Source: Escherichia coli (lineage in GTDB: Bacteria; Pseudomonadota; Gammaproteobacteria; Enterobacterales; Enterobacteriaceae). Taken from it: a stretch of 64,000 bases of DNA. The translations under genes were made by a program, and so were the position numbers. Numbering within the stretch: the stretch's first letter is position 1; each line of letters opens with the position of its first letter. This document shows positions 17,390 to 50,087 of the stretch, one piece after another. The notes below the pieces were generated by a model, which made no database searches, was not told the DNA's origin, and saw only the letters and a list, made by a program, of their open reading frames with translations. The stretch lies in NCBI RefSeq assembly GCF_024700885.2, contig NZ_CP117016.1; one strand, written 5' to 3'.

Positions 17390-18559
17390 ATGACTAACAG
17401 CAATCGCATCAAGCTCACATGGATTAGCTTTCTCTCCTACGCACTGACCGGTGCGTTGGTTATTGTCACCGGGATGGTGATGGGAAATATCGCCGATTAT
17501 TTCAATCTGCCTGTTTCCAGTATGAGTAACACCTTCACCTTCCTCAACGCCGGCATTTTAATCTCTATCTTCCTCAACGCCTGGCTGATGGAAATCGTCC
17601 CGTTGAAAACGCAGTTACGTTTTGGCTTTCTCCTGATGGTGCTGGCGGTTGCCGGTTTGATGTTCAGCCACAGCCTGGCGCTGTTCTCGGCGGCGATGTT
17701 CATTCTCGGGGTGGTCAGCGGCATCACCATGTCGATTGGTACATTCCTGATAACACAAATGTATGAAGGGCGTCAGCGCGGTTCCCGCCTGTTATTTACC
17801 GACTCCTTCTTCAGTATGGCCGGGATGATTTTCCCAATGATCGCCGCGTTTCTACTGGCGCGCAGCATTGAGTGGTACTGGGTTTATGCCTGCATCGGGC
17901 TGGTGTATGTCGCTATTTTTATTCTGACCTTCGGTTGTGAGTTCCCGGCACTGGGCAAACATGCACCAAAAACGGATGCTCCGGTAGTGAAAGAAAAATG
18001 GGGGATCGGCGTGCTGTTTCTCTCTGTTGCGGCGCTGTGCTACATCCTCGGTCAGTTAGGTTTTATCTCCTGGGTGCCGGAGTATGCCAAAGGCCTGGGC
18101 ATGAGCCTGAACGACGCTGGCACGCTGGTGAGTAACTTCTGGATGTCATATATGGTCGGCATGTGGGCGTTCAGCTTTATTCTTCGCTTCTTTGATTTGC
18201 AACGTATCCTGACCGTACTGGCGGGTCTGGCTGCGATTCTGATGTACGTCTTTAACACCGGAACACCGGCACATATGGCGTGGTCAATTCTCGCCCTGGG
18301 CTTCTTCTCCAGCGCGATCTATACCACCATCATCACCCTGGGTTCACAGCAGACCAAAGTACCGTCACCAAAACTGGTTAACTTTGTCCTGACCTGCGGG
18401 ACCATCGGTACTATGTTGACCTTTGTGGTTACCGGCCCGATTGTTGAACATAGCGGTCCGCAGGCGGCACTGCTTACAGCAAACGGTCTGTACGCTGTCG
18501 TCTTTGTGATGTGCTTCCTGTTAGGTTTCGTCAGCCGTCAGCCGTCACCGTCAGCATAA
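17390..18559 (+). CDS. tsgA: MFS-family transporter TsgA
   Basis: ORF track 389-aa translation with about 12 hydrophobic segments ([21 protein letters not shown]...); matches remembered TsgA. The annotated start might differ slightly. Confidence 0.88.
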
Positions 18560-18738
18560 CACCCTGACCTCTCATTAATTGCTCATGCCGGGCGGCGCTA
18601 TCGTCGTCCGGCCTTTTCCTCTCTTACCCTGCTACGTACATCTATTTCTATAAACCCGTTCATTTTGTCTGTTTTTTGCACAAACATGAAATGTCAGACA
18701 ATTCCGTGACTTAAGAAAATTTATACAAATCAGCAATA

Positions 18739-18839: not shown

Positions 18840-21383
18840 ATGAGCAAAGTCAGACTCGCAATTATCGGTAACGGTATGGTCGGCCATCGCTTTATCGAAG
18901 ATCTTCTTGATAAATCTGATGCGGCCAACTTTGATATTACCGTTTTCTGTGAAGAACCGCGCATCGCTTATGACCGCGTACACCTCTCGTCTTACTTCTC
19001 TCACCACACCGCCGAAGAGCTGTCGCTGGTGCGCGAAGGCTTCTACGAGAAACACGGCATCAAAGTTCTGGTCGGCGAACGCGCTATCACCATCAACCGT
19101 CAGGAGAAGGTGATTCACTCCAGCGCCGGGCGCACCGTTTTTTATGACAAGCTGATCATGGCGACCGGTTCCTACCCGTGGATCCCGCCAATCAAAGGTT
19201 CTGATACCCAGGACTGCTTTGTCTATCGCACCATTGAAGACCTCAACGCCATTGAATCCTGCGCCCGTCGCAGCAAACGCGGTGCCGTTGTTGGCGGCGG
19301 CCTGTTAGGTCTGGAAGCCGCTGGCGCGCTGAAAAACTTAGGTATTGAAACCCACGTTATCGAATTTGCCCCTATGCTGATGGCGGAACAGCTTGATCAG
19401 ATGGGCGGCGAGCAGCTGCGTCGCAAAATCGAAAGTATGGGCGTGCGCGTTCACACCAGCAAAAACACCCTTGAGATTGTGCAGGAAGGTGTTGAAGCGC
19501 GTAAAACCATGCGTTTTGCCGACGGCAGCGAACTGGAAGTCGACTTTATCGTCTTCTCTACCGGTATCCGTCCGCGCGATAAGCTGGCAACCCAGTGTGG
19601 TCTGGACGTTGCTCCGCGTGGGGGTATCGTCATAAATGATTCCTGCCAGACTTCCGATCCGGATATCTACGCCATCGGTGAATGCGCAAGCTGGAACAAC
19701 CGTGTATTTGGTCTGGTAGCACCTGGCTACAAAATGGCGCAGGTCGCCGTTGACCATATTCTTGGTAGCGAAAACGCCTTTGAAGGTGCTGACCTTAGCG
19801 CCAAGTTGAAACTGCTGGGCGTAGACGTAGGCGGTATTGGTGATGCGCACGGTCGCACGCCTGGCGCACGTAGCTACGTTTACCTCGACGAAAGCAAAGA
19901 GATCTACAAACGCCTGATTGTCAGCGAAGACAACAAAACCCTGCTCGGTGCGGTACTGGTGGGCGATACCAGCGACTACGGTAACCTGCTGCAACTGGTG
20001 CTGAACGCGATCGAGCTGCCGGAAAACCCGGATTCTCTGATTCTGCCGGCGCACTCTGGTAGCGGTAAGCCGTCTATCGGTGTTGATAAACTGCCGGACA
20101 GCGCGCAAATCTGCTCCTGCTTCGACGTCACCAAAGGCGATCTGATTGCTGCCATCAACAAAGGCTGCCACACCGTTGCGGCGCTGAAAGCTGAAACCAA
20201 AGCGGGTACTGGCTGCGGTGGCTGTATCCCGCTGGTCACTCAGGTACTGAACGCAGAACTGGCGAAACAGGGCATCGAAGTTAACAACAACCTGTGCGAA
20301 CACTTTGCTTATTCGCGTCAGGAACTGTTCCATTTAATCCGCGTTGAAGGCATTAAAACCTTCGAAGAACTGCTGGCGAAACACGGCAAAGGCTACGGTT
20401 GTGAAGTTTGTAAACCGACCGTAGGTTCGCTGCTGGCCTCCTGCTGGAACGAATACATTCTGAAGCCGGAACATACTCCGCTGCAGGATTCAAACGACAA
20501 CTTCCTCGCTAACATCCAGAAAGACGGCACCTACTCGGTGATCCCGCGTTCTCCGGGCGGTGAAATCACCCCGGAAGGGCTGATGGCAGTAGGTCGTATC
20601 GCGCGTGAATTTAATCTCTACACCAAAATCACCGGCTCCCAGCGCCTGGCGATGTTTGGCGCACAGAAAGACGATCTGCCGGAGATCTGGCGTCAGCTGA
20701 TTGAAGCCGGCTTCGAAACCGGTCATGCCTATGCGAAAGCACTGCGTATGGCGAAAACCTGCGTGGGTAGCACCTGGTGCCGCTACGGTGTTGGCGACAG
20801 CGTCGGCCTCGGCGTGGAACTGGAAAACCGCTACAAAGGCATCCGTACGCCGCACAAAATGAAGTTCGGTGTCTCCGGCTGTACCCGTGAATGTTCAGAA
20901 GCTCAGGGTAAAGACGTGGGTATTATCGCCACTGAAAAAGGCTGGAACCTGTATGTTTGCGGTAACGGCGGCATGAAACCGCGTCATGCGGATCTGCTGG
21001 CAGCGGATATCGATCGCGAAACGCTGATCAAATATCTCGACCGCTTCATGATGTTCTACATCCGTACCGCCGACAAACTGACGCGTACCGCGCCGTGGTT
21101 AGAAAACCTTGAAGGCGGCATCGATTACCTGAAAGCGGTGATCATTGACGACAAACTGGGGCTGAACGCACATCTGGAAGAAGAGATGGCGCGCCTGCGT
21201 GAAGCGGTAGTATGTGAGTGGACTGAAACGGTCAATACGCCGTCTGCGCAGACTCGCTTCAAACACTTCATCAACAGCGACAAGCGTGACCCGAACGTGC
21301 AGATGGTGCCAGAGCGCGAACAGCACCGTCCGGCAACGCCGTATGAACGTATCCCGGTAACTCTGGTGGAGGACAACGCATGA
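18840..21383 (+). CDS. nirB: NADH-dependent nitrite reductase large subunit NirB, 847 aa
   Basis: Translation with FAD/NAD Rossmann motifs (IIGNGMVG, VVGGGLLGLEAAG) and sirohaem/Fe-S cysteine cluster; matches remembered NirB. Confidence 0.97.
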   Translation: MSKVRLAIIGNGMVGHRFIEDLLDKSDAANFDITVFCEEPRIAYDRVHLSSYFSHHTAEELSLVREGFYEKHGIKVLVGERAITINRQEKVIHSSAGRTVFYDKLIMATGSYPWIPPIKGSDTQDCFVYRTIEDLNAIESCARRSKRGAVVGGGLLGLEAAGALKNLGIETHVIEFAPMLMAEQLDQMGGEQLRRKIESMGVRVHTSKNTLEIVQEGVEARKTMRFADGSELEVDFIVFSTGIRPRDKLATQCGLDVAPRGGIVINDSCQTSDPDIYAIGECASWNNRVFGLVAPGYKMAQVAVDHILGSENAFEGADLSAKLKLLGVDVGGIGDAHGRTPGARSYVYLDESKEIYKRLIVSEDNKTLLGAVLVGDTSDYGNLLQLVLNAIELPENPDSLILPAHSGSGKPSIGVDKLPDSAQICSCFDVTKGDLIAAINKGCHTVAALKAETKAGTGCGGCIPLVTQVLNAELAKQGIEVNNNLCEHFAYSRQELFHLIRVEGIKTFEELLAKHGKGYGCEVCKPTVGSLLASCWNEYILKPEHTPLQDSNDNFLANIQKDGTYSVIPRSPGGEITPEGLMAVGRIAREFNLYTKITGSQRLAMFGAQKDDLPEIWRQLIEAGFETGHAYAKALRMAKTCVGSTWCRYGVGDSVGLGVELENRYKGIRTPHKMKFGVSGCTRECSEAQGKDVGIIATEKGWNLYVCGNGGMKPRHADLLAADIDRETLIKYLDRFMMFYIRTADKLTRTAPWLENLEGGIDYLKAVIIDDKLGLNAHLEEEMARLREAVVCEWTETVNTPSAQTRFKHFINSDKRDPNVQMVPEREQHRPATPYERIPVTLVEDNA

Positions 21384-37297: not shown

Positions 37298-38302
37298 TTA
37301 CGGCTTCGCCACAAAACCAATCGCTTCGTACACCGCTTTCAGCGTACGGGAAGCGTGTGCGCTGGCTTTTTCTGCGCCATCTTTCATCACCTGTTGCAGG
37401 AAGGCTTCGTCATTGCGGAAACGGTGATAACGTTCCTGCAATTCAGTCAGCATACCGGAAACGGCATCAGCCACTTCGCCTTTGAGATGACCATACATCT
37501 TGCCTTCGAACTGTTTTTCCAGTTCCGGGATGCTCTGGCCCGTTACCGCAGAAAGGATATCCAGCAGGTTGGAAACGCCCGCTTTGTTCTGCACATCGTA
37601 GCGAACTACCGGCGGCTCGTCGGAGTCGGTGACCGCGCGTTTGATTTTCTTCACTACCGATTTCGGATCTTCCAGCAGGCCGATAACGTTATTGCGGTTA
37701 TCGTCAGACTTGGACATCTTTTTGGTCGGCTCCAGCAGCGACATTACGCGCGCGCCAGATTTCGGAATAAACGGCTCCGGCACTTTAAAGATCTCGCCAT
37801 ACAGCGCGTTGAAACGCTGGGCGATATCGCGGCTCAGTTCCAGGTGCTGTTTCTGGTCTTCCCCCACCGGCACCAGGTTGGTTTGATACAGCAGAATGTC
37901 TGCTGCCATCAGCACTGGATAGTCAAACAGACCAGCATTGATGTTCTCGGCATAACGCGCAGATTTATCTTTAAACTGCGTCATGCGGCTCAGTTCGCCG
38001 AAGTAGGTATAGCAGTTCAGTGCCCAGCCTAACTGCGCATGTTCCGGCACGTGGGACTGAACAAAAATGGTGCTTTTCTCAGGATCGATACCACAAGCCA
38101 GATACAAGGCCAGCGTATCCAGCGTCGCTTTACGCAGCTTCTGTGCATCCTGGCGCACGGTGATCGCGTGTTGGTCAACGATACAGTAAATGCAATGGTA
38201 GTCATCCTGCATGTTTACCCACTGACGCAGCGCACCCATGTAGTTACCAATGGTCAATTCACCTGAGGGCTGTGCGCCACTAAAAACGATGGGCTTAGTC
38301 AT
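37298..38302 (-). CDS. trpS: Tryptophanyl-tRNA synthetase TrpS, 334 aa
   Basis: Class-I aaRS motifs: HIGN-type (TIGNYMGA) near the N-terminus and KMSKS (KMSKSD). Confidence 0.97.
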
Positions 38303-39053
38303 TTTTCGATTCCTGATTTTCGCTATGCGGAAGCCCTAATGCGGGCAGAAGGTCATTTATAGACTGATAAATTACATCAGGCTGGCTGAGATCGATAGCC
38401 TCGCCGTAGTTATATCCGTAGGTTAAGCCAACTGATGGGCAACCTGCCGCTTTTGCTGCCTGAATATCATTGCGTGAGTCGCCAACAAACAGCATCTGTT
38501 GTGGAACAATTCCCATCCGCTCAGCCACCAGTAACAGCGGATCCGGATGCGGTTTTTTGTTTTGCACATCATCACCACCAATCACCACGCTGAAGTATTT
38601 GGCGATATCTAAGGCTTCGAGCAGCGGCGCGACGAACGGCGTCGGTTTGTTGGTGACCAGACCTAGCGGCAGGCCTTTAGCCTGCAATGCGCCCAGCGTA
38701 TCGGCAACGTGCGGGAACAAAAACGTCCCCTCTTCGGCAACCTCGCCATAGTAGCGATCGAACAGTTTACGCAGAATACGTACCTGTTCTTCTGCCGGAA
38801 TGTCGTCATCAACGGGCGGTTTCCCCATTGTTTTACGCAGAGTCGCACGTTCCTGACGCGCCCAGGTCAATGCGCGCTCCATCAGAACATCTGCGCCGTT
38901 ACCAATCCAGGTTATAACGCGTTCTTCACCTGCGACGGGCAACTCCAGCGCATACAGCGCCATATCTACTGCGGTAGCCAAGCCAGGAGCACTGTCCACC
39001 AGCGTACCATCGAGATCAAAAGCGACGCCGCGAATATCTTCAAACTTATTCAT
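38295..39053 (-). CDS. gph: Phosphoglycolate phosphatase Gph (HAD superfamily), 252 aa
   Basis: HAD motif I ([12 protein letters not shown]); 8-nt overlap with the trpS start. Confidence 0.95.
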
Positions 39054-39723
39054 GACTTACCTTTGCCAGTTCACTGCGCATTTCATCAATGACTTTTTTG
39101 TAGTCTGGCTGGTCGAAGATTGCCGAACCGGCGACGAACATATCCGCACCCGCCGCAGCGATTTCGCCAATGTTGTTCACCTTCACGCCACCGTCAACTT
39201 CCAGTCGAATGTCAAAGCCAGACTCGTCGATACGACGACGTACTTCGCGCAGTTTATCCAGTGTTTGCGGAATGAAAGACTGACCGCCGAAACCAGGGTT
39301 GACGGACATCAGCAGGATCACATCCAGCTTATCCATCACGTAATCCAGATAGCTCAGCGGTGTCGCCGGGTTAAATACCAGACCCGCTTTACAGCCATTT
39401 TCTTTAATCAGTTGCAGCGTGCGGTCAACATGCTCGGAGGCTTCTGGATGAAAGGTAATGATGCTGGCACCAGCGGCAGCGAAATCAGGCACAATGCGAT
39501 CGACGGGTTTCACCATCAGGTGTACGTCGATAGGGGCGGTAATGCCGTAGTTACGCAAGGATTTCAGCACCATTGGCCCAATCGTCAGATTGGGAACATA
39601 GTGGTTATCCATGACGTCAAAATGCACGACATCAGCGCCAGCTGCCAGGGCTTTTGCGGTATCTTCACCCAGGCGGGCAAAATCAGCCGACAGAATTGAG
39701 GGGGCAATCAAATACTGTTTCAT
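39046..39723 (-). CDS. rpe: Ribulose-phosphate 3-epimerase Rpe, 225 aa
   Basis: Translation [21 protein letters not shown]... matches remembered Rpe; 8-nt overlap with gph. Confidence 0.96.
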
Positions 39724-40577: not shown

Positions 40578-40683
40578 GCTGACTAACTAATTACACCTTC
40601 TCCGGCTGTGGAGAAAGCTCCGACAGCATCCAGCGCTTCAGGCAACTCCCGCAACGATAAACCATTGCGGGAGATAACCTTGA

Positions 40684-41970
40684 TTACTTCAGATCGGCCT
40701 GTACCTGACGCAGCGGTTTCGCCCACGGGTTTTTGGCCTGGACATCTGCTGGCAATGTAGATACCGCTTTTTTCGCCTCTTCTTTCGAAGCGTACACGCC
40801 AGAAACCAGGACATACCACGGCTGACCATTACGCGTCGTTTCATAGACAACGTAGTTTTTCAGATTCTCTTTCTTCGCCCAACCGTTCAGGTTGTCGTAG
40901 TTAGAGGAACTGCTCAGCTGCAGAGTGTAATGGCTGGACGGTGCCGATTTCAACGAACCAACATTACCTGCGGTCTTCCCTCCAGCGGCTGGTGTTGCCG
41001 TGGTTTGCGCCGGGGATGCCGTCTGTACTGGAGCCGTAGTTGCGGTCTCTTTTGGTGCTGGCGTAGAGGTCGCAGCCGGTGCCTTCGTGCTCGCCACAGG
41101 AGCAGCTGGTTCAGTACGCTTCGGCGTCTGTGCTACCGGCTTCGGTTCCGTTTTCACGGTTGCTTGCGGTTTTTTCGGTTCAATCACCGCCTGCTGACGA
41201 GCTGGACGCGTGGTGGCCGGACGTTCAGCGGTTTGCGTTTTCGCCGTGTCACGCGATGCATTGCCATTGCGAACAGGCGCGACCGTCGCGGGTTCAGTCG
41301 GCAATGTAGAATTGACCGCCACATTGTTCAACTGTTGCTGATTTTGTGGCTGAGTCAGCGCATTGTTCAGGTCACCCTGCACTTCAACACGTTGTTGACC
41401 ATCCGTTGCCGCCGGGGTTTGCCCTTGAGTCGGCGTAGAAGAGATCGGCGGCAGAGAAACATCCTGCTGAGTATTTTCCGCAGACGTGGTTCCCGGCGCT
41501 GGCTGCACGCCATTCGCCTGATCGGTCGCATTGCCAGCAAGATCAATACTCTTCTCGCCAGACGCGGTTTGATCGCTGGAAGAGGTCGAGGGGGCTTTTA
41601 GCGCAGAACCGATACCGATGATCAACAGCAGGAGAACCAGAATGCCGACGCCCATCATCATATACTGACGAGAAGCGGGTTTACTGGCTGCTTTTTTGCG
41701 CTTACGCGGACGACGCTCTACGCGCTCTTCATCCACGGTTTCATCTTCGGATTCGTCAATTTCTTCTTCGATTTCCGGTTCCTCATTGCGCTCTTTTTGC
41801 GCACGAGTCGGACGGCGATCGTCAGTGTCATCAAGTTCAATATCATCAAAATTGATCTGCGGTTCGCCACGTTCAGTACGCTCAGAACGTTCAGAAGATT
41901 GACGAGAACGACCAGTACGACGATCGCTGGGATCGGGTTTCAGCTCGTCTTCTGGTTTGAATTCATCCAT
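40684..41970 (-). CDS. damX: Cell-division protein DamX (SPOR domain), 428 aa
   Basis: Charged N-terminus, one TM segment, a long low-complexity Q/P/T/A-rich linker and a C-terminal SPOR-like region. Confidence 0.93.
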
Positions 41971-42061
41971 TTAACACCCCACTAAAAGGTTAATGCTTAC
42001 CACGTTGCAATTAACCTGAAGCTAATAGACCGCTTGATAAGCGGCCTGACCTTTCTTGTTG

Positions 42062-47534: not shown

Positions 47535-50087
47535 GTGAAGTTCGTAAAGTATTTTTTGATCCTTGCAGTCTGTTGCATTCTGCTGGGAGCAGGCTCGATT
47601 TATGGCCTATACCGCTACATCGAGCCACAACTGCCGGATGTGGCGACATTAAAAGATGTTCGCCTGCAAATTCCGATGCAGATTTACAGCGCCGATGGCG
47701 AGCTGATTGCTCAATACGGTGAGAAACGTCGTATTCCGGTTACGTTGGATCAAATCCCGCCGGAGATGGTGAAAGCCTTTATCGCGACGGAAGACAGCCG
47801 CTTCTACGAGCATCACGGCGTTGACCCGGTGGGGATCTTCCGTGCGGCAAGTGTGGCGCTGTTCTCCGGCCACGCGTCACAAGGGGCGAGTACCATTACC
47901 CAGCAGCTGGCGAGAAACTTCTTCCTCAGTCCAGAACGCACGCTGATGCGTAAGATTAAGGAAGTCTTCCTCGCGATTCGCATTGAACAGTTGCTGACGA
48001 AAGACGAGATCCTCGAGCTTTATCTGAACAAGATTTACCTCGGTTACCGCGCCTATGGTGTCGGTGCTGCGGCACAAGTCTATTTCGGTAAAACGGTCGA
48101 CCAACTGACGCTGAACGAAATGGCGGTGATAGCCGGGCTGCCGAAAGCGCCTTCCACCTTCAACCCGCTCTACTCGATGGATCGTGCCGTCGCGCGGCGT
48201 AACGTCGTACTGTCGCGGATGCTGGATGAAGGGTATATCACCCAACAACAGTTCGATCAGACACGCACTGAGGCGATTAACGCTAACTATCACGCGCCGG
48301 AGATTGCTTTCTCTGCGCCGTACCTGAGCGAAATGGTGCGCCAGGAGATGTATAACCGTTATGGCGAAAGTGCCTATGAAGACGGTTATCGCATTTACAC
48401 CACCATCACCCGCAAAGTACAGCAGGCCGCACAGCAGGCAGTACGTAATAACGTGCTGGACTACGACATGCGCCACGGCTATCGCGGCCCGGCAAATGTG
48501 CTGTGGAAAGTGGGCGAATCGGCGTGGGATAACAACAAGATTACCGATACGCTGAAGGCGCTGCCGACCTATGGTCCGCTGCTGCCTGCCGCAGTCACCA
48601 GCGCCAATCCTCAGGAAGCGACGGCGATGCTGGCGGACGGGTCGACCGTCGCATTGAGTATGGAAGGCGTTCGCTGGGCGCGTCCTTACCGTTCGGATAC
48701 TCAGCAGGGACCGACGCCGCGTAAAGTGACCGATGTTCTGCAAACGGGTCAGCAAATCTGGGTTCGTCAGGTTGGCGATGCATGGTGGCTGGCGCAAGTG
48801 CCGGAAGTGAACTCGGCGCTGGTGTCGATCAATCCGCAAAACGGTGCCGTTATGGCGCTGGTCGGTGGCTTTGATTTCAATCAGAGCAAGTTTAACCGCG
48901 CCACCCAGGCACTGCGTCAGGTAGGTTCCAACATCAAACCGTTCCTCTACACCGCGGCGATGGATAAAGGTCTGACGCTGGCAAGTATGTTGAACGATGT
49001 GCCAATTTCCCGCTGGGATGCAGGTGCCGGTTCTGACTGGCAGCCGAAGAACTCACCACCGCAGTATGCCGGTCCAATTCGCTTACGTCAGGGACTGGGC
49101 CAGTCGAAAAACGTGGTGATGGTACGCGCAATGCGGGCGATGGGCGTCGACTACGCTGCAGAATATCTGCAACGCTTCGGCTTCCCGGCGCAAAACATTG
49201 TCCACACCGAATCGCTGGCGCTGGGTTCAGCGTCCTTCACCCCAATGCAGGTGGCGCGTGGCTACGCGGTCATGGCGAACGGCGGCTTCCTGGTGGACCC
49301 GTGGTTTATCAGCAAAATTGAAAACGATCAGGGCGGCGTGATTTTCGAAGCGAAACCGAAAGTAGCCTGCCCGGAATGCGATATTCCGGTGATTTACGGT
49401 GATACGCAGAAATCGAACGTGCTGGAAAATAACGATGTTGAAGATGTCGCTATCTCCCGCGAGCAGCAGAATGTTTCTGTGCCAATGCCGCAGCTGGAGC
49501 AGGCAAATCAGGCGTTAGTCGCGAAGACTGGCGCGCAGGAGTACGCACCGCACGTCATCAACACTCCGCTGGCATTCCTGATTAAGAGTGCTTTGAACAC
49601 CAATATCTTTGGTGAGCCAGGCTGGCAGGGTACCGGCTGGCGTGCAGGTCGTGATTTGCAGCGTCGCGATATCGGCGGGAAAACCGGTACCACTAACAGT
49701 TCGAAAGATGCGTGGTTTTCGGGTTACGGTCCGGGCGTTGTGACCTCGGTCTGGATTGGCTTTGATGATCACCGTCGTAATCTCGGTCATACAACGGCTT
49801 CCGGAGCGATTAAAGATCAGATCTCAGGTTACGAAGGCGGTGCCAAGAGTGCCCAGCCTGCATGGGACGCTTATATGAAAGCCGTTCTTGAAGGTGTGCC
49901 GGAGCAGCCGCTGACGCCGCCGCCGGGTATTGTGACGGTGAATATCGATCGCAGCACCGGGCAGTTAGCTAATGGTGGCAACAGCCGCGAAGAGTATTTC
50001 ATCGAAGGTACGCAGCCGACACAACAGGCGGTGCACGAGGTGGGAACGACCATTATCGATAATGGCGAGGCACAGGAATTGTTCTGA
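47535..50087 (+). CDS. mrcA: Penicillin-binding protein 1A (MrcA / PBP1a), 850 aa, probable GTG start
   Basis: ORF track 47511..50087; the GTG at 47535 (VKFVKYFLILAVCC...) gives 850 aa; glycosyltransferase and transpeptidase motifs (e.g. SNIKPF-type region). Confidence 0.95.
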   Translation: MKFVKYFLILAVCCILLGAGSIYGLYRYIEPQLPDVATLKDVRLQIPMQIYSADGELIAQYGEKRRIPVTLDQIPPEMVKAFIATEDSRFYEHHGVDPVGIFRAASVALFSGHASQGASTITQQLARNFFLSPERTLMRKIKEVFLAIRIEQLLTKDEILELYLNKIYLGYRAYGVGAAAQVYFGKTVDQLTLNEMAVIAGLPKAPSTFNPLYSMDRAVARRNVVLSRMLDEGYITQQQFDQTRTEAINANYHAPEIAFSAPYLSEMVRQEMYNRYGESAYEDGYRIYTTITRKVQQAAQQAVRNNVLDYDMRHGYRGPANVLWKVGESAWDNNKITDTLKALPTYGPLLPAAVTSANPQEATAMLADGSTVALSMEGVRWARPYRSDTQQGPTPRKVTDVLQTGQQIWVRQVGDAWWLAQVPEVNSALVSINPQNGAVMALVGGFDFNQSKFNRATQALRQVGSNIKPFLYTAAMDKGLTLASMLNDVPISRWDAGAGSDWQPKNSPPQYAGPIRLRQGLGQSKNVVMVRAMRAMGVDYAAEYLQRFGFPAQNIVHTESLALGSASFTPMQVARGYAVMANGGFLVDPWFISKIENDQGGVIFEAKPKVACPECDIPVIYGDTQKSNVLENNDVEDVAISREQQNVSVPMPQLEQANQALVAKTGAQEYAPHVINTPLAFLIKSALNTNIFGEPGWQGTGWRAGRDLQRRDIGGKTGTTNSSKDAWFSGYGPGVVTSVWIGFDDHRRNLGHTTASGAIKDQISGYEGGAKSAQPAWDAYMKAVLEGVPEQPLTPPPGIVTVNIDRSTGQLANGGNSREEYFIEGTQPTQQAVHEVGTTIIDNGEAQELF

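Follow-up and report, generated by a model that had tools for sequence, protein, structure and literature searches.

A long open reading frame opposite the linker of Escherichia coli damX, a probable mirror image of damX codon choice

The damX locus and its product

The window, a stretch of 64,000 nucleotides from the Escherichia coli contig NZ_CP117016.1 (RefSeq assembly GCF_024700885.2), carries the gene for the cell-division protein DamX at 40684..41970 on the minus strand. The coding sequence specifies 428 amino acids and a stop codon, and the assignment is based on the open reading frame (ORF) listing, family matches and the RefSeq annotation. In RefSeq damX lies between aroB and dam in the order aroK-aroB-damX-dam-rpe-gph-trpS, and distant orthologs have the same neighbours. 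Of 5426 complete E. coli genomes, 5425 contain the gene. The 1.7 kb surrounding the linker-coding part of damX and the ORF that lies opposite it are 100% identical to strain 1190 (NZ_CP023386.1), the damX allele being identical also, and comparison of one half of the window with that record reveals 3 differing positions.

The DamX sequence matches the NCBIfam equivalog NF008153 with 851.4 bits against a cut-off of 256, residues 1-428 aligning with profile positions 1-424. The N-terminal region, residues 1-100 (41671..41970, minus strand), is strongly charged, with 21 glutamates, 16 arginines and 13 aspartates, and from the established topology of DamX we take it to be cytoplasmic. The Kyte-Doolittle profile has a single peak, a 19-residue maximum of 2.66 at residues 106-124 (41599..41655, minus strand), and this hydrophobic segment is predicted to form a transmembrane helix. 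Its column conservation is 0.83 in an alignment of 79 sequences. At the C-terminus a SPOR (septal peptidoglycan-binding) domain, residues 345-418 (40717..40938, minus strand), is recognized by Pfam PF05036 with 54.2 bits against a cut-off of 21 (E = 1.9e-14). Residues 334-428 are matched by PDB entry 2LFV, 'Protein damX' (E = 1.3e-55), and the column conservation of the domain is 0.93.

The helix and the SPOR domain are joined by a low-complexity linker, residues 125-346 (40933..41598, minus strand), delineated by composition and entropy. Alanine, threonine, proline, glutamine and serine (37, 34, 27, 22 and 19 residues, respectively) make up 63% of its 222 positions, and the Shannon entropy is 3.53 bits as opposed to 4.15 bits for the other proteins of the window. 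These values bear out a reading of the region made from sequence only, which had described a central linker rich in Gln, Pro, Thr and Ala. The linker is poorly conserved and rich in insertions and deletions, with a mean column conservation of 0.44 and gaps in 238 of 375 alignment columns, and in-frame linker length variants of DamX in E. coli range from 389 to 421 amino acids. [quoted passage not shown]

By its established topology DamX is a bitopic inner-membrane protein of the divisome, in which the charged N-terminus is followed by a single transmembrane helix, then by a flexible, low-complexity linker in the periplasm and lastly by the SPOR domain, which binds septal peptidoglycan. With DamX of E. 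coli K-12 and Salmonella the protein encoded in the window shares the equivalog match, the SPOR domain, the match to 2LFV, the single helix and the position in the operon. Compared with the K-12 (TG1) allele a few residues differ, and there is no substantive difference.

The open frame on the opposite strand

The DNA that encodes the linker is also open on the plus strand, where an ORF consisting of ATG, 222 codons and TAG occupies 40930..41601 in the codon-aligned antisense frame; we judge it to be non-coding. The sequence-only reading had placed damX at 40684..41970 and an Arg-rich ORF of 223 codons at 40930..41601 on the opposite strand, and the ORF listing, in which the latter starts with ATG, agrees with it exactly. 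The complete stop-to-stop stretch in this frame is longer than the length then given. It covers 305 codons (40684..41598, plus strand), with an in-frame TGA immediately upstream at 40681-40683, and contains no ATG, GTG or TTG ahead of 40930. Beyond the TAG the frame is open for a further 127 codons.

The codons of the antisense ORF and of damX coincide, both starts being 1 mod 3, so that an antisense stop is possible only where damX uses TTA, CTA or TCA. One of the 429 damX codons is of this type, the CTA of Leu124 (41599..41601, minus strand), and its reverse complement is the TAG that terminates the ORF. The antisense ATG is likewise the reverse complement of a single codon, the CAT of His347 (40930..40932, minus strand), the sole histidine in DamX. 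Across the whole of damX serine is encoded by TCT in 17 of 35 cases and never by TCA (0 of 35), leucine by CTG in 14 of 23 and arginine by CGT in 21 of 26. Since the linker is poor in leucine, and since serine is mostly TCT and leucine mostly CTG, the mirror frame meets no stop between the damX stop codon and Leu124. The composition of the antisense product has a related origin. It contains 58 arginines in 223 residues (26%), 13 cysteines (6%) and eight tryptophans, with a pI of 12, because the alanine, threonine, proline and serine codons of damX (GCN, ACN, CCN and TCT), when reversed, specify Arg, Gly, Cys, Ser and Trp.

Is the ORF longer than chance would allow? In random sequence of the same base composition the probability of 222 open codons is approximately 0.001, but that is the wrong null for a coding region. 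When DamX is re-encoded with the mean codon usage of the 60 remaining genes in the window, an average of 169 codons is obtained for the longest open run, the probability of an open run of at least 305 codons is 0.03 and that of an ORF with a start codon and at least 223 codons is 0.08. Permuting the synonymous codons of damX itself gives P = 0.44-0.74, and P = 0.44 for an ORF of at least 223 codons. The length of the antisense ORF is therefore not beyond expectation from the codon content of damX, whether its own codons (P = 0.44) or window usage (P = 0.08) provide the reference. According to a review (PMC7457138, citing Mir et al. 2012), codon composition in general predicts somewhat fewer long antisense ORFs than are observed.

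Nor is this ORF unusual among its neighbours. In the aligned antisense frame of the 61 annotated genes of the window, 24 ORFs reach 100 codons or more and five reach 200 or more, opposite nirB (331 codons), mrcA (320), trpS (225), damX (223) and rpe (215). In the two remaining antisense frames of the same genes 8 ORFs and 1 ORF, respectively, reach 100 codons, and no ORF reaches 200. With five such aligned ORFs in the window, of which that of damX ranks fourth in length, the damX ORF is one of a class.

One property of damX, taken alone, could look like avoidance of antisense stops. The gene has one TTA, CTA or TCA codon where 6.6 are expected from window-average usage (P = 0.007); among its leucine and serine codons the count is 0 of 26 in the linker and 1 of 32 elsewhere, 1 of 58 in total. 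The deficit thus extends over the whole gene, and it accompanies a general preference for TCT and CGT. A similar scarcity is common to frlB (1 of 49), crp (1 of 33), rpe (1 of 32) and slyD (0 of 19), also to greB, and the deficit is not seen in orthologs of damX.

Conservation and selection in the two frames

Comparisons with relatives are based on 80 related loci from species-representative genomes. The full-length alignment contains 79 sequences, namely 78 Enterobacteriaceae orthologs and the window. A search with full-length DamX returned close relatives only; DNA from more distant species was reached by searching representatives with the N-terminal 128 amino acids and then retrieving the contigs.

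The region equivalent to the linker is free of antisense stops in six of the 79 aligned sequences and has at least one stop in the other 73. In the orthologs TTA, CTA and TCA account for 9.75% of the leucine and serine codons within the linker, compared to 6.1% outside, and being commoner there they indicate that antisense stops are not avoided in the linker. Interruptions appear within the genus. In E. albertii the antisense frame is stopped at codon 214, and three cryptic Escherichia lineages carry a synonymous TCC to TCA change two codons past the antisense ATG. Seven more distant Enterobacterales loci have between 6 and 19 antisense stops apiece.

All nine E. coli strains compared (that of the window and eight others, including K-12 TG1) have an uninterrupted ORF with unchanged ends, and the ORF is also intact in Escherichia sp. 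MOD1. Of 5425 complete E. coli genomes, 4774 share the same 70 nt around the antisense ATG. Such preservation inside the species weighs little, because the divergence is only 1-2%. A 70-nt query carrying the truncating allele, TCC345 to TCA, had no exact match in the 5425 complete E. coli genomes, and the allele is therefore confined to a divergent lineage.

Substitution patterns separate the two frames clearly. In nine comparisons (Nei-Gojobori) the damX frame of the linker has a dN/dS of 0.08-0.13 and the antisense frame one of 1.1-2.6, the values against the closest lineages being 1.7-2.6 in the latter. Almost every difference that separates the linker from that of close relatives leaves the DamX protein unchanged and is radical in the antisense product (Trp/Arg, Cys/Arg and Gly/Arg, for example). 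The DamX linker, though poorly conserved, is under purifying selection in the damX frame.

A second gene within the linker should lower the synonymous divergence of the sense frame. In six of seven comparisons, however, the linker has diverged more at synonymous sites than the other parts of damX; against E. albertii dS is 0.44 for the linker, compared to 0.30 and 0.28 for the flanking N-terminal and SPOR parts, respectively. The relative synonymous entropy of the linker, 0.83, is the highest in the gene, for which the mean is 0.75. The higher divergence argues against constraint from a second gene there. In codon-usage log-odds the sense frame scores +0.17 and the antisense frame -0.19, as is usual for aligned antisense frames (mean for real genes -0.12), and 29 of the 58 arginine codons in the antisense frame are rare ones (CGG, AGA, CGA or AGG).

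Signals of expression were sought by several means. Scans of the antisense product against Pfam and NCBIfam gave no family match, and the exact product is absent from a sequence collection of about 15 billion proteins. A consensus scan, which can miss weak signals, detected no promoter-like site on the plus strand upstream of 40930 and no AGGAGG-like motif ahead of the antisense ATG. Our literature search returned no report of antisense translation in damX. The gene is absent from the 18 supplementary files of a survey of E. coli antisense overlapping genes (10.1101/2020.11.18.388249), and likewise from the table of 215 coding sequences of a PIRT-Seq translation-reporter screen (PMC12350097). 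We caution that to be missing from published candidate lists is weak negative evidence. The latter source does contain an entry named IN-damX. We considered it as a report of antisense translation and rejected it, as it is a sense-strand, shifted-frame ORF elsewhere in damX.

The start of damX and reported dam promoters within the gene

At the other end of the gene we note a separate feature. The damX ribosome-binding site together with codons 1-23, some 70-95 nt, is almost invariant in Enterobacteriaceae, synonymous sites included. In the 79-sequence alignment the block extends from about 19 nt before the damX ATG to about codon 25, corresponding to approximately 41896-41989 in the window with a core at 41917-41983. 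Within it Pro12 is CCC, a rare codon, in 77 of 77 sequences and Pro14 is CCC in 74 of 79; Ser15 is AGC in 77 of 77, and all 79 sequences have GAC for Asp8 and GAT for both Asp13 and Asp16. The relative synonymous entropy of codons 5-13 is 0.08, compared to the gene mean of 0.75. The block is the most conserved part of the approximately 4.3 kb aligned between the end of aroK and the start of rpe, its best 60-nt window being 99% identical, and the longest run at 90% identity or better is 41 nt here as opposed to at most 15 nt anywhere in aroB, dam or rpe. It is present in 5425 of 5425 E. coli genomes at 99% identity or above over 106 nt, and as a single copy, no second one having been detected in these genomes.

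In the seven more distant Enterobacterales loci the block does show synonymous changes. Two elements are kept, namely the ribosome-binding region TGGGGTGTTAAATG and a pair of GATC sites 9 bp apart (GAT-CCC in six of seven loci and GAT-CGN in all seven). An Rfam search gave one sub-threshold match, to Trp_leader, and this falls outside the block. Folding of the block on either strand is no better than that of shuffled sequences (z = -1.16 and 0.04); a hairpin predicted within it is not retained in distant orthologs and no covariation was found. The +1 open frame of IN-damX starts at damX nt +32, within the block. We also considered a conserved second protein encoded in the +1 frame and, beyond the block, ruled it out because dN/dS in that frame is 1.0-3.2.

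The block may represent an undescribed cis-regulatory element of the dam operon. As hypotheses for its function we put forward an element controlling damX translation, a DNA site within the Dam-encoding operon that responds to methylation, and a frameshift site. The block could matter more than the antisense ORF; its two deeply conserved GATC sites are placed just upstream of the gene for the Dam methylase.

The sequence-only reading also expected promoters for dam in this region. That expectation owes its support to the literature. The study of Khandige et al. [quoted passage not shown] The same study describes a promoter-sparing deletion of damX in strain UTI89, constructed with primers JMJ519 and JMJ991 (PMC4981707). 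Placed on the window this deletion removes 41382 to about 41890, leaving 40684 to about 41381 in place. Since the 3′ part of the gene is said to carry a dam promoter, deletions of damX must be controlled for polar effects on Dam, a point already made in the literature. We observed in passing that one review mis-cites the dam promoter papers in support of statements on the pap operon.

Our scan offers a weak candidate for an internal dam promoter at 40924..40953 on the minus strand, TTGAAA and TACACT separated by an 18-nt spacer, with 9 of 12 positions matching the consensus. It is the sole sigma-70-like match on the dam-sense strand inside damX. The scan of the region produced two sites, which is not above the expectation from shuffled sequences (1.0 +/- 1.0), and the first T of the -35 hexamer and the last T of the -10 hexamer are poorly conserved in orthologs. 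Compared with the internal dam promoters that PMC4981707 describes for the aroK-aroB-damX-dam-rpe-gph-trpS operon, the consensus-like candidate at 40924-40953 is weak and unconserved.

Competing explanations and known systems

Could the open frame nevertheless be a gene? One possibility is a young gene or proto-gene confined to E. coli, for which an antisense transcript would undergo low-level translation in the manner of the overlapping genes of EHEC. The intact frame in nine E. coli strains and in Escherichia sp. MOD1, together with the unusually low number of codons in damX that generate antisense stops relative to window-average usage (P = 0.007), would fit such a gene, and verified long antisense genes do occur in Enterobacteria and Pseudomonas (PMC7103648, PMC8850804). 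A functional product is, however, difficult to reconcile with an antisense dN/dS of 1.7-2.6 even against the closest lineages, with stops that arise within the genus Escherichia and with undiminished synonymous divergence across the ORF. Consensus scans revealed neither a promoter nor a Shine-Dalgarno sequence and family scans revealed no domain, the composition (26% Arg, 6% Cys, pI 12) is implausible for a protein, and the ORF is unlisted in two genome-wide E. coli screens. We regard this explanation as very improbable. The same holds for its most permissive version, in which the 223-codon frame is an E. coli-specific proto-gene occasionally translated from pervasive antisense transcription and too young to display purifying selection or conservation. 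Were the proto-gene real, a synonymous change in damX such as TCC345 to TCA would show a measurable effect.

Two further explanations appeal to damX DNA or mRNA rather than to an antisense gene, and we rate both as slightly more improbable still. Non-coding functions of the linker DNA on either strand, for instance in internal dam promoters or in a regulatory RNA of antisense orientation, might keep the frame open in place of codon usage. The sigma-70 damp1 and the 'alternative dam promoters' that PMC4981707 locates inside damX provide a basis for this, and the promoter-like site at 40924-40953 overlaps the start of the antisense ORF. A promoter of about 40 bp is nevertheless unable to hold 670 bp free of stops, and the candidate hexamers are not conserved at key positions. 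The synonymous entropy of the linker, the highest in the gene (0.83 against 0.75), combined with the high dS, argues against any extended constraint at the nucleotide level. Alternatively, the hidden product of the locus might come from the sense strand, by ribosomal frameshifting on the damX message. A sense-strand, shifted-frame candidate is indeed on record, IN-damX of PMC12350097, which maps to 41718-41870 on the minus strand, and the +1 frame is open for 73 codons from damX nt +32. That candidate covers the N-terminal part of damX and not 40930-41601; it was seen in a single replicate (PMC12350097), and outside the ultraconserved block the +1-frame dN/dS is 1.0-3.2. The +1 frame is open because the charged N-terminus uses few Leu, Val, Ile and Met codons. 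An exact look-up of the 50-residue IN-damX product in the collection of about 15 billion proteins found no match.

The evidence of reading frame, codon nulls, stops in orthologs, dN/dS and dS leads us to conclude that the region is, with high probability, an ordinary damX gene in which only the damX frame is coding. The antisense ORF would be a passive mirror image of damX, its codons the exact reverse complements of damX codons, and we infer that it is neither transcribed nor translated. The compositional artefact proposed in the sequence-only reading is thereby upheld, with the cause refined. What directly keeps the frame open is the choice of codons in a frame-symmetric position; low complexity as such contributes less, and the leucine-poor linker only helps. 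Long ORFs antisense to bacterial genes are regularly put forward as hidden genes, and damX provides a clean negative. The tests applied here, namely frame register, synonymous-codon nulls, maps of stops in orthologs and dN/dS in both frames, can be reused to dismiss similar candidates.

Long 'shadow' ORFs in the antisense strand of bacterial genes have reportedly been attributed, by Merino in 1994 and Silke in 1997, to the genetic code and codon bias. The damX ORF shares the register of these long-known ORFs, the codon-aligned antisense frame, as well as the origin of stops at TTA, CTA and TCA and a length that is explained by codons. It differs in kind from antisense overlapping genes with experimental support; laoB and ano are further examples of functional genes of this type, besides those compared here. 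The pop gene, antisense to ompA in EHEC, is 603 bp long and has RNA-seq and ribosome-profiling signals and phenotypes (PMC7103648). In Pseudomonas aeruginosa olg1 and olg2, of 957 and 1536 nt, respectively, are accompanied by RNA-seq, ribosome profiling, phenotypes and purifying selection (PMC8850804). Like these, the damX ORF is long and lies entirely within, and antisense to, an annotated gamma-proteobacterial gene; unlike them, its frame has a dN/dS of at least 1 and is not conserved, and it is known here from sequence alone. With respect to the 'shadow' ORFs discussed in PMC7457138 there is no difference, the damX ORF being a typical example that is helped by a leucine-poor linker. The damX mirror ORF is of an already known kind and a change to the annotation is unnecessary.

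Conservation at the start of damX

The nucleotide sequence at the start of damX, the gene for a cell-division protein, is almost unchanged in an alignment of 78 Enterobacteriaceae orthologues and the sequence studied here. The block, on the minus strand at 41896-41989 with a core at 41917-41983, covers the ribosome-binding site together with roughly the first 25 codons, and the conservation extends to synonymous sites and to rare CCC proline codons. Within the aligned region of approximately 4.3 kb, bounded by the end of aroK and the start of rpe, this is the most conserved segment, with 99% identity in the best 60-nucleotide window. Two GATC sites lie in the block at a distance of 9 bp from each other, and both are kept even in distant Enterobacterales. 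A search of Rfam with the block gave no match, folding gave no significant structure, a search for covariation found none and a second copy was sought but not found.

IN-damX, a nested candidate of the translation-reporter screen PIRT-Seq (PMC12350097), maps to 41718-41870 (minus strand) and was detected in one replicate only. It occupies the +1 frame on the damX sense strand and encodes a hydrophobic peptide, 50 amino acids when counted from a GTG. The frame is open up to 41939; from stop to stop it comprises 73 codons, starting at damX nucleotide +32. Among orthologues the dN/dS of this frame is 1.0-3.2 and the product is therefore not a conserved protein.

Length variation in DamX

A 9-nucleotide tandem repeat of 3.1 copies, with TCTGAACGT-like units in the sense direction, lies within the damX N-terminus at 41869-41896 and encodes the series SER-SER-TER. 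Codons 31-35 (RTERG) are missing from 92% of the aligned sequences, and on that basis this region looks like a small, duplication-derived insertion restricted to a few close relatives.

Sequences from E. coli, Shigella and metagenomes include DamX variants that are 389-421 amino acids in length, with 90-96% identity. Since such variants exist, the low-complexity linker of the protein seems to tolerate in-frame deletions. One sampled complete genome (fS58a) carries a 425-residue allele.

Intergenic regions flanking damX

The region between damX and dam (40578-40683) consists of two contrasting parts. Directly after the damX stop codon is a hairpin with a 9-bp stem, CTCCCGCAA...TTGCGGGAG, at about 40645-40672, which is poorly conserved, whereas beyond it a stretch of approximately 62 nucleotides (40578-40639), reaching the dam ATG, is strongly conserved. 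A second hairpin, a small one (TTCTCC...GGAGAA), lies within this stretch, which has no good Shine-Dalgarno sequence for dam. The stretch could harbour an element for translational control, or else the weak proximal promoter of dam. On the other side of damX, just past the aroB stop codon, the hairpin GCCGCUU-AUC-AAGCGGU (42029-42045, minus strand) lacks a T-run. Its stem positions are poorly conserved in sequence across orthologues, which may represent covariation.

Long antisense frames in other genes

Four further open reading frames, of 215-331 codons, are present in the codon-aligned antisense frames of ordinary genes, namely nirB (18840-21383), mrcA (47535-50087), trpS (37298-38302) and rpe (39046-39723), the last for example at 39052-39699 on the plus strand. 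For tsgA (about 17390-18578), the RefSeq record that matches this sequence, that of strain 1190, gives a frameshifted pseudogene. The antisense frames of nirB, mrcA, trpS and rpe belong to the same class of artefact as the antisense frame of damX, which is judged to be a non-coding by-product of the damX codons.
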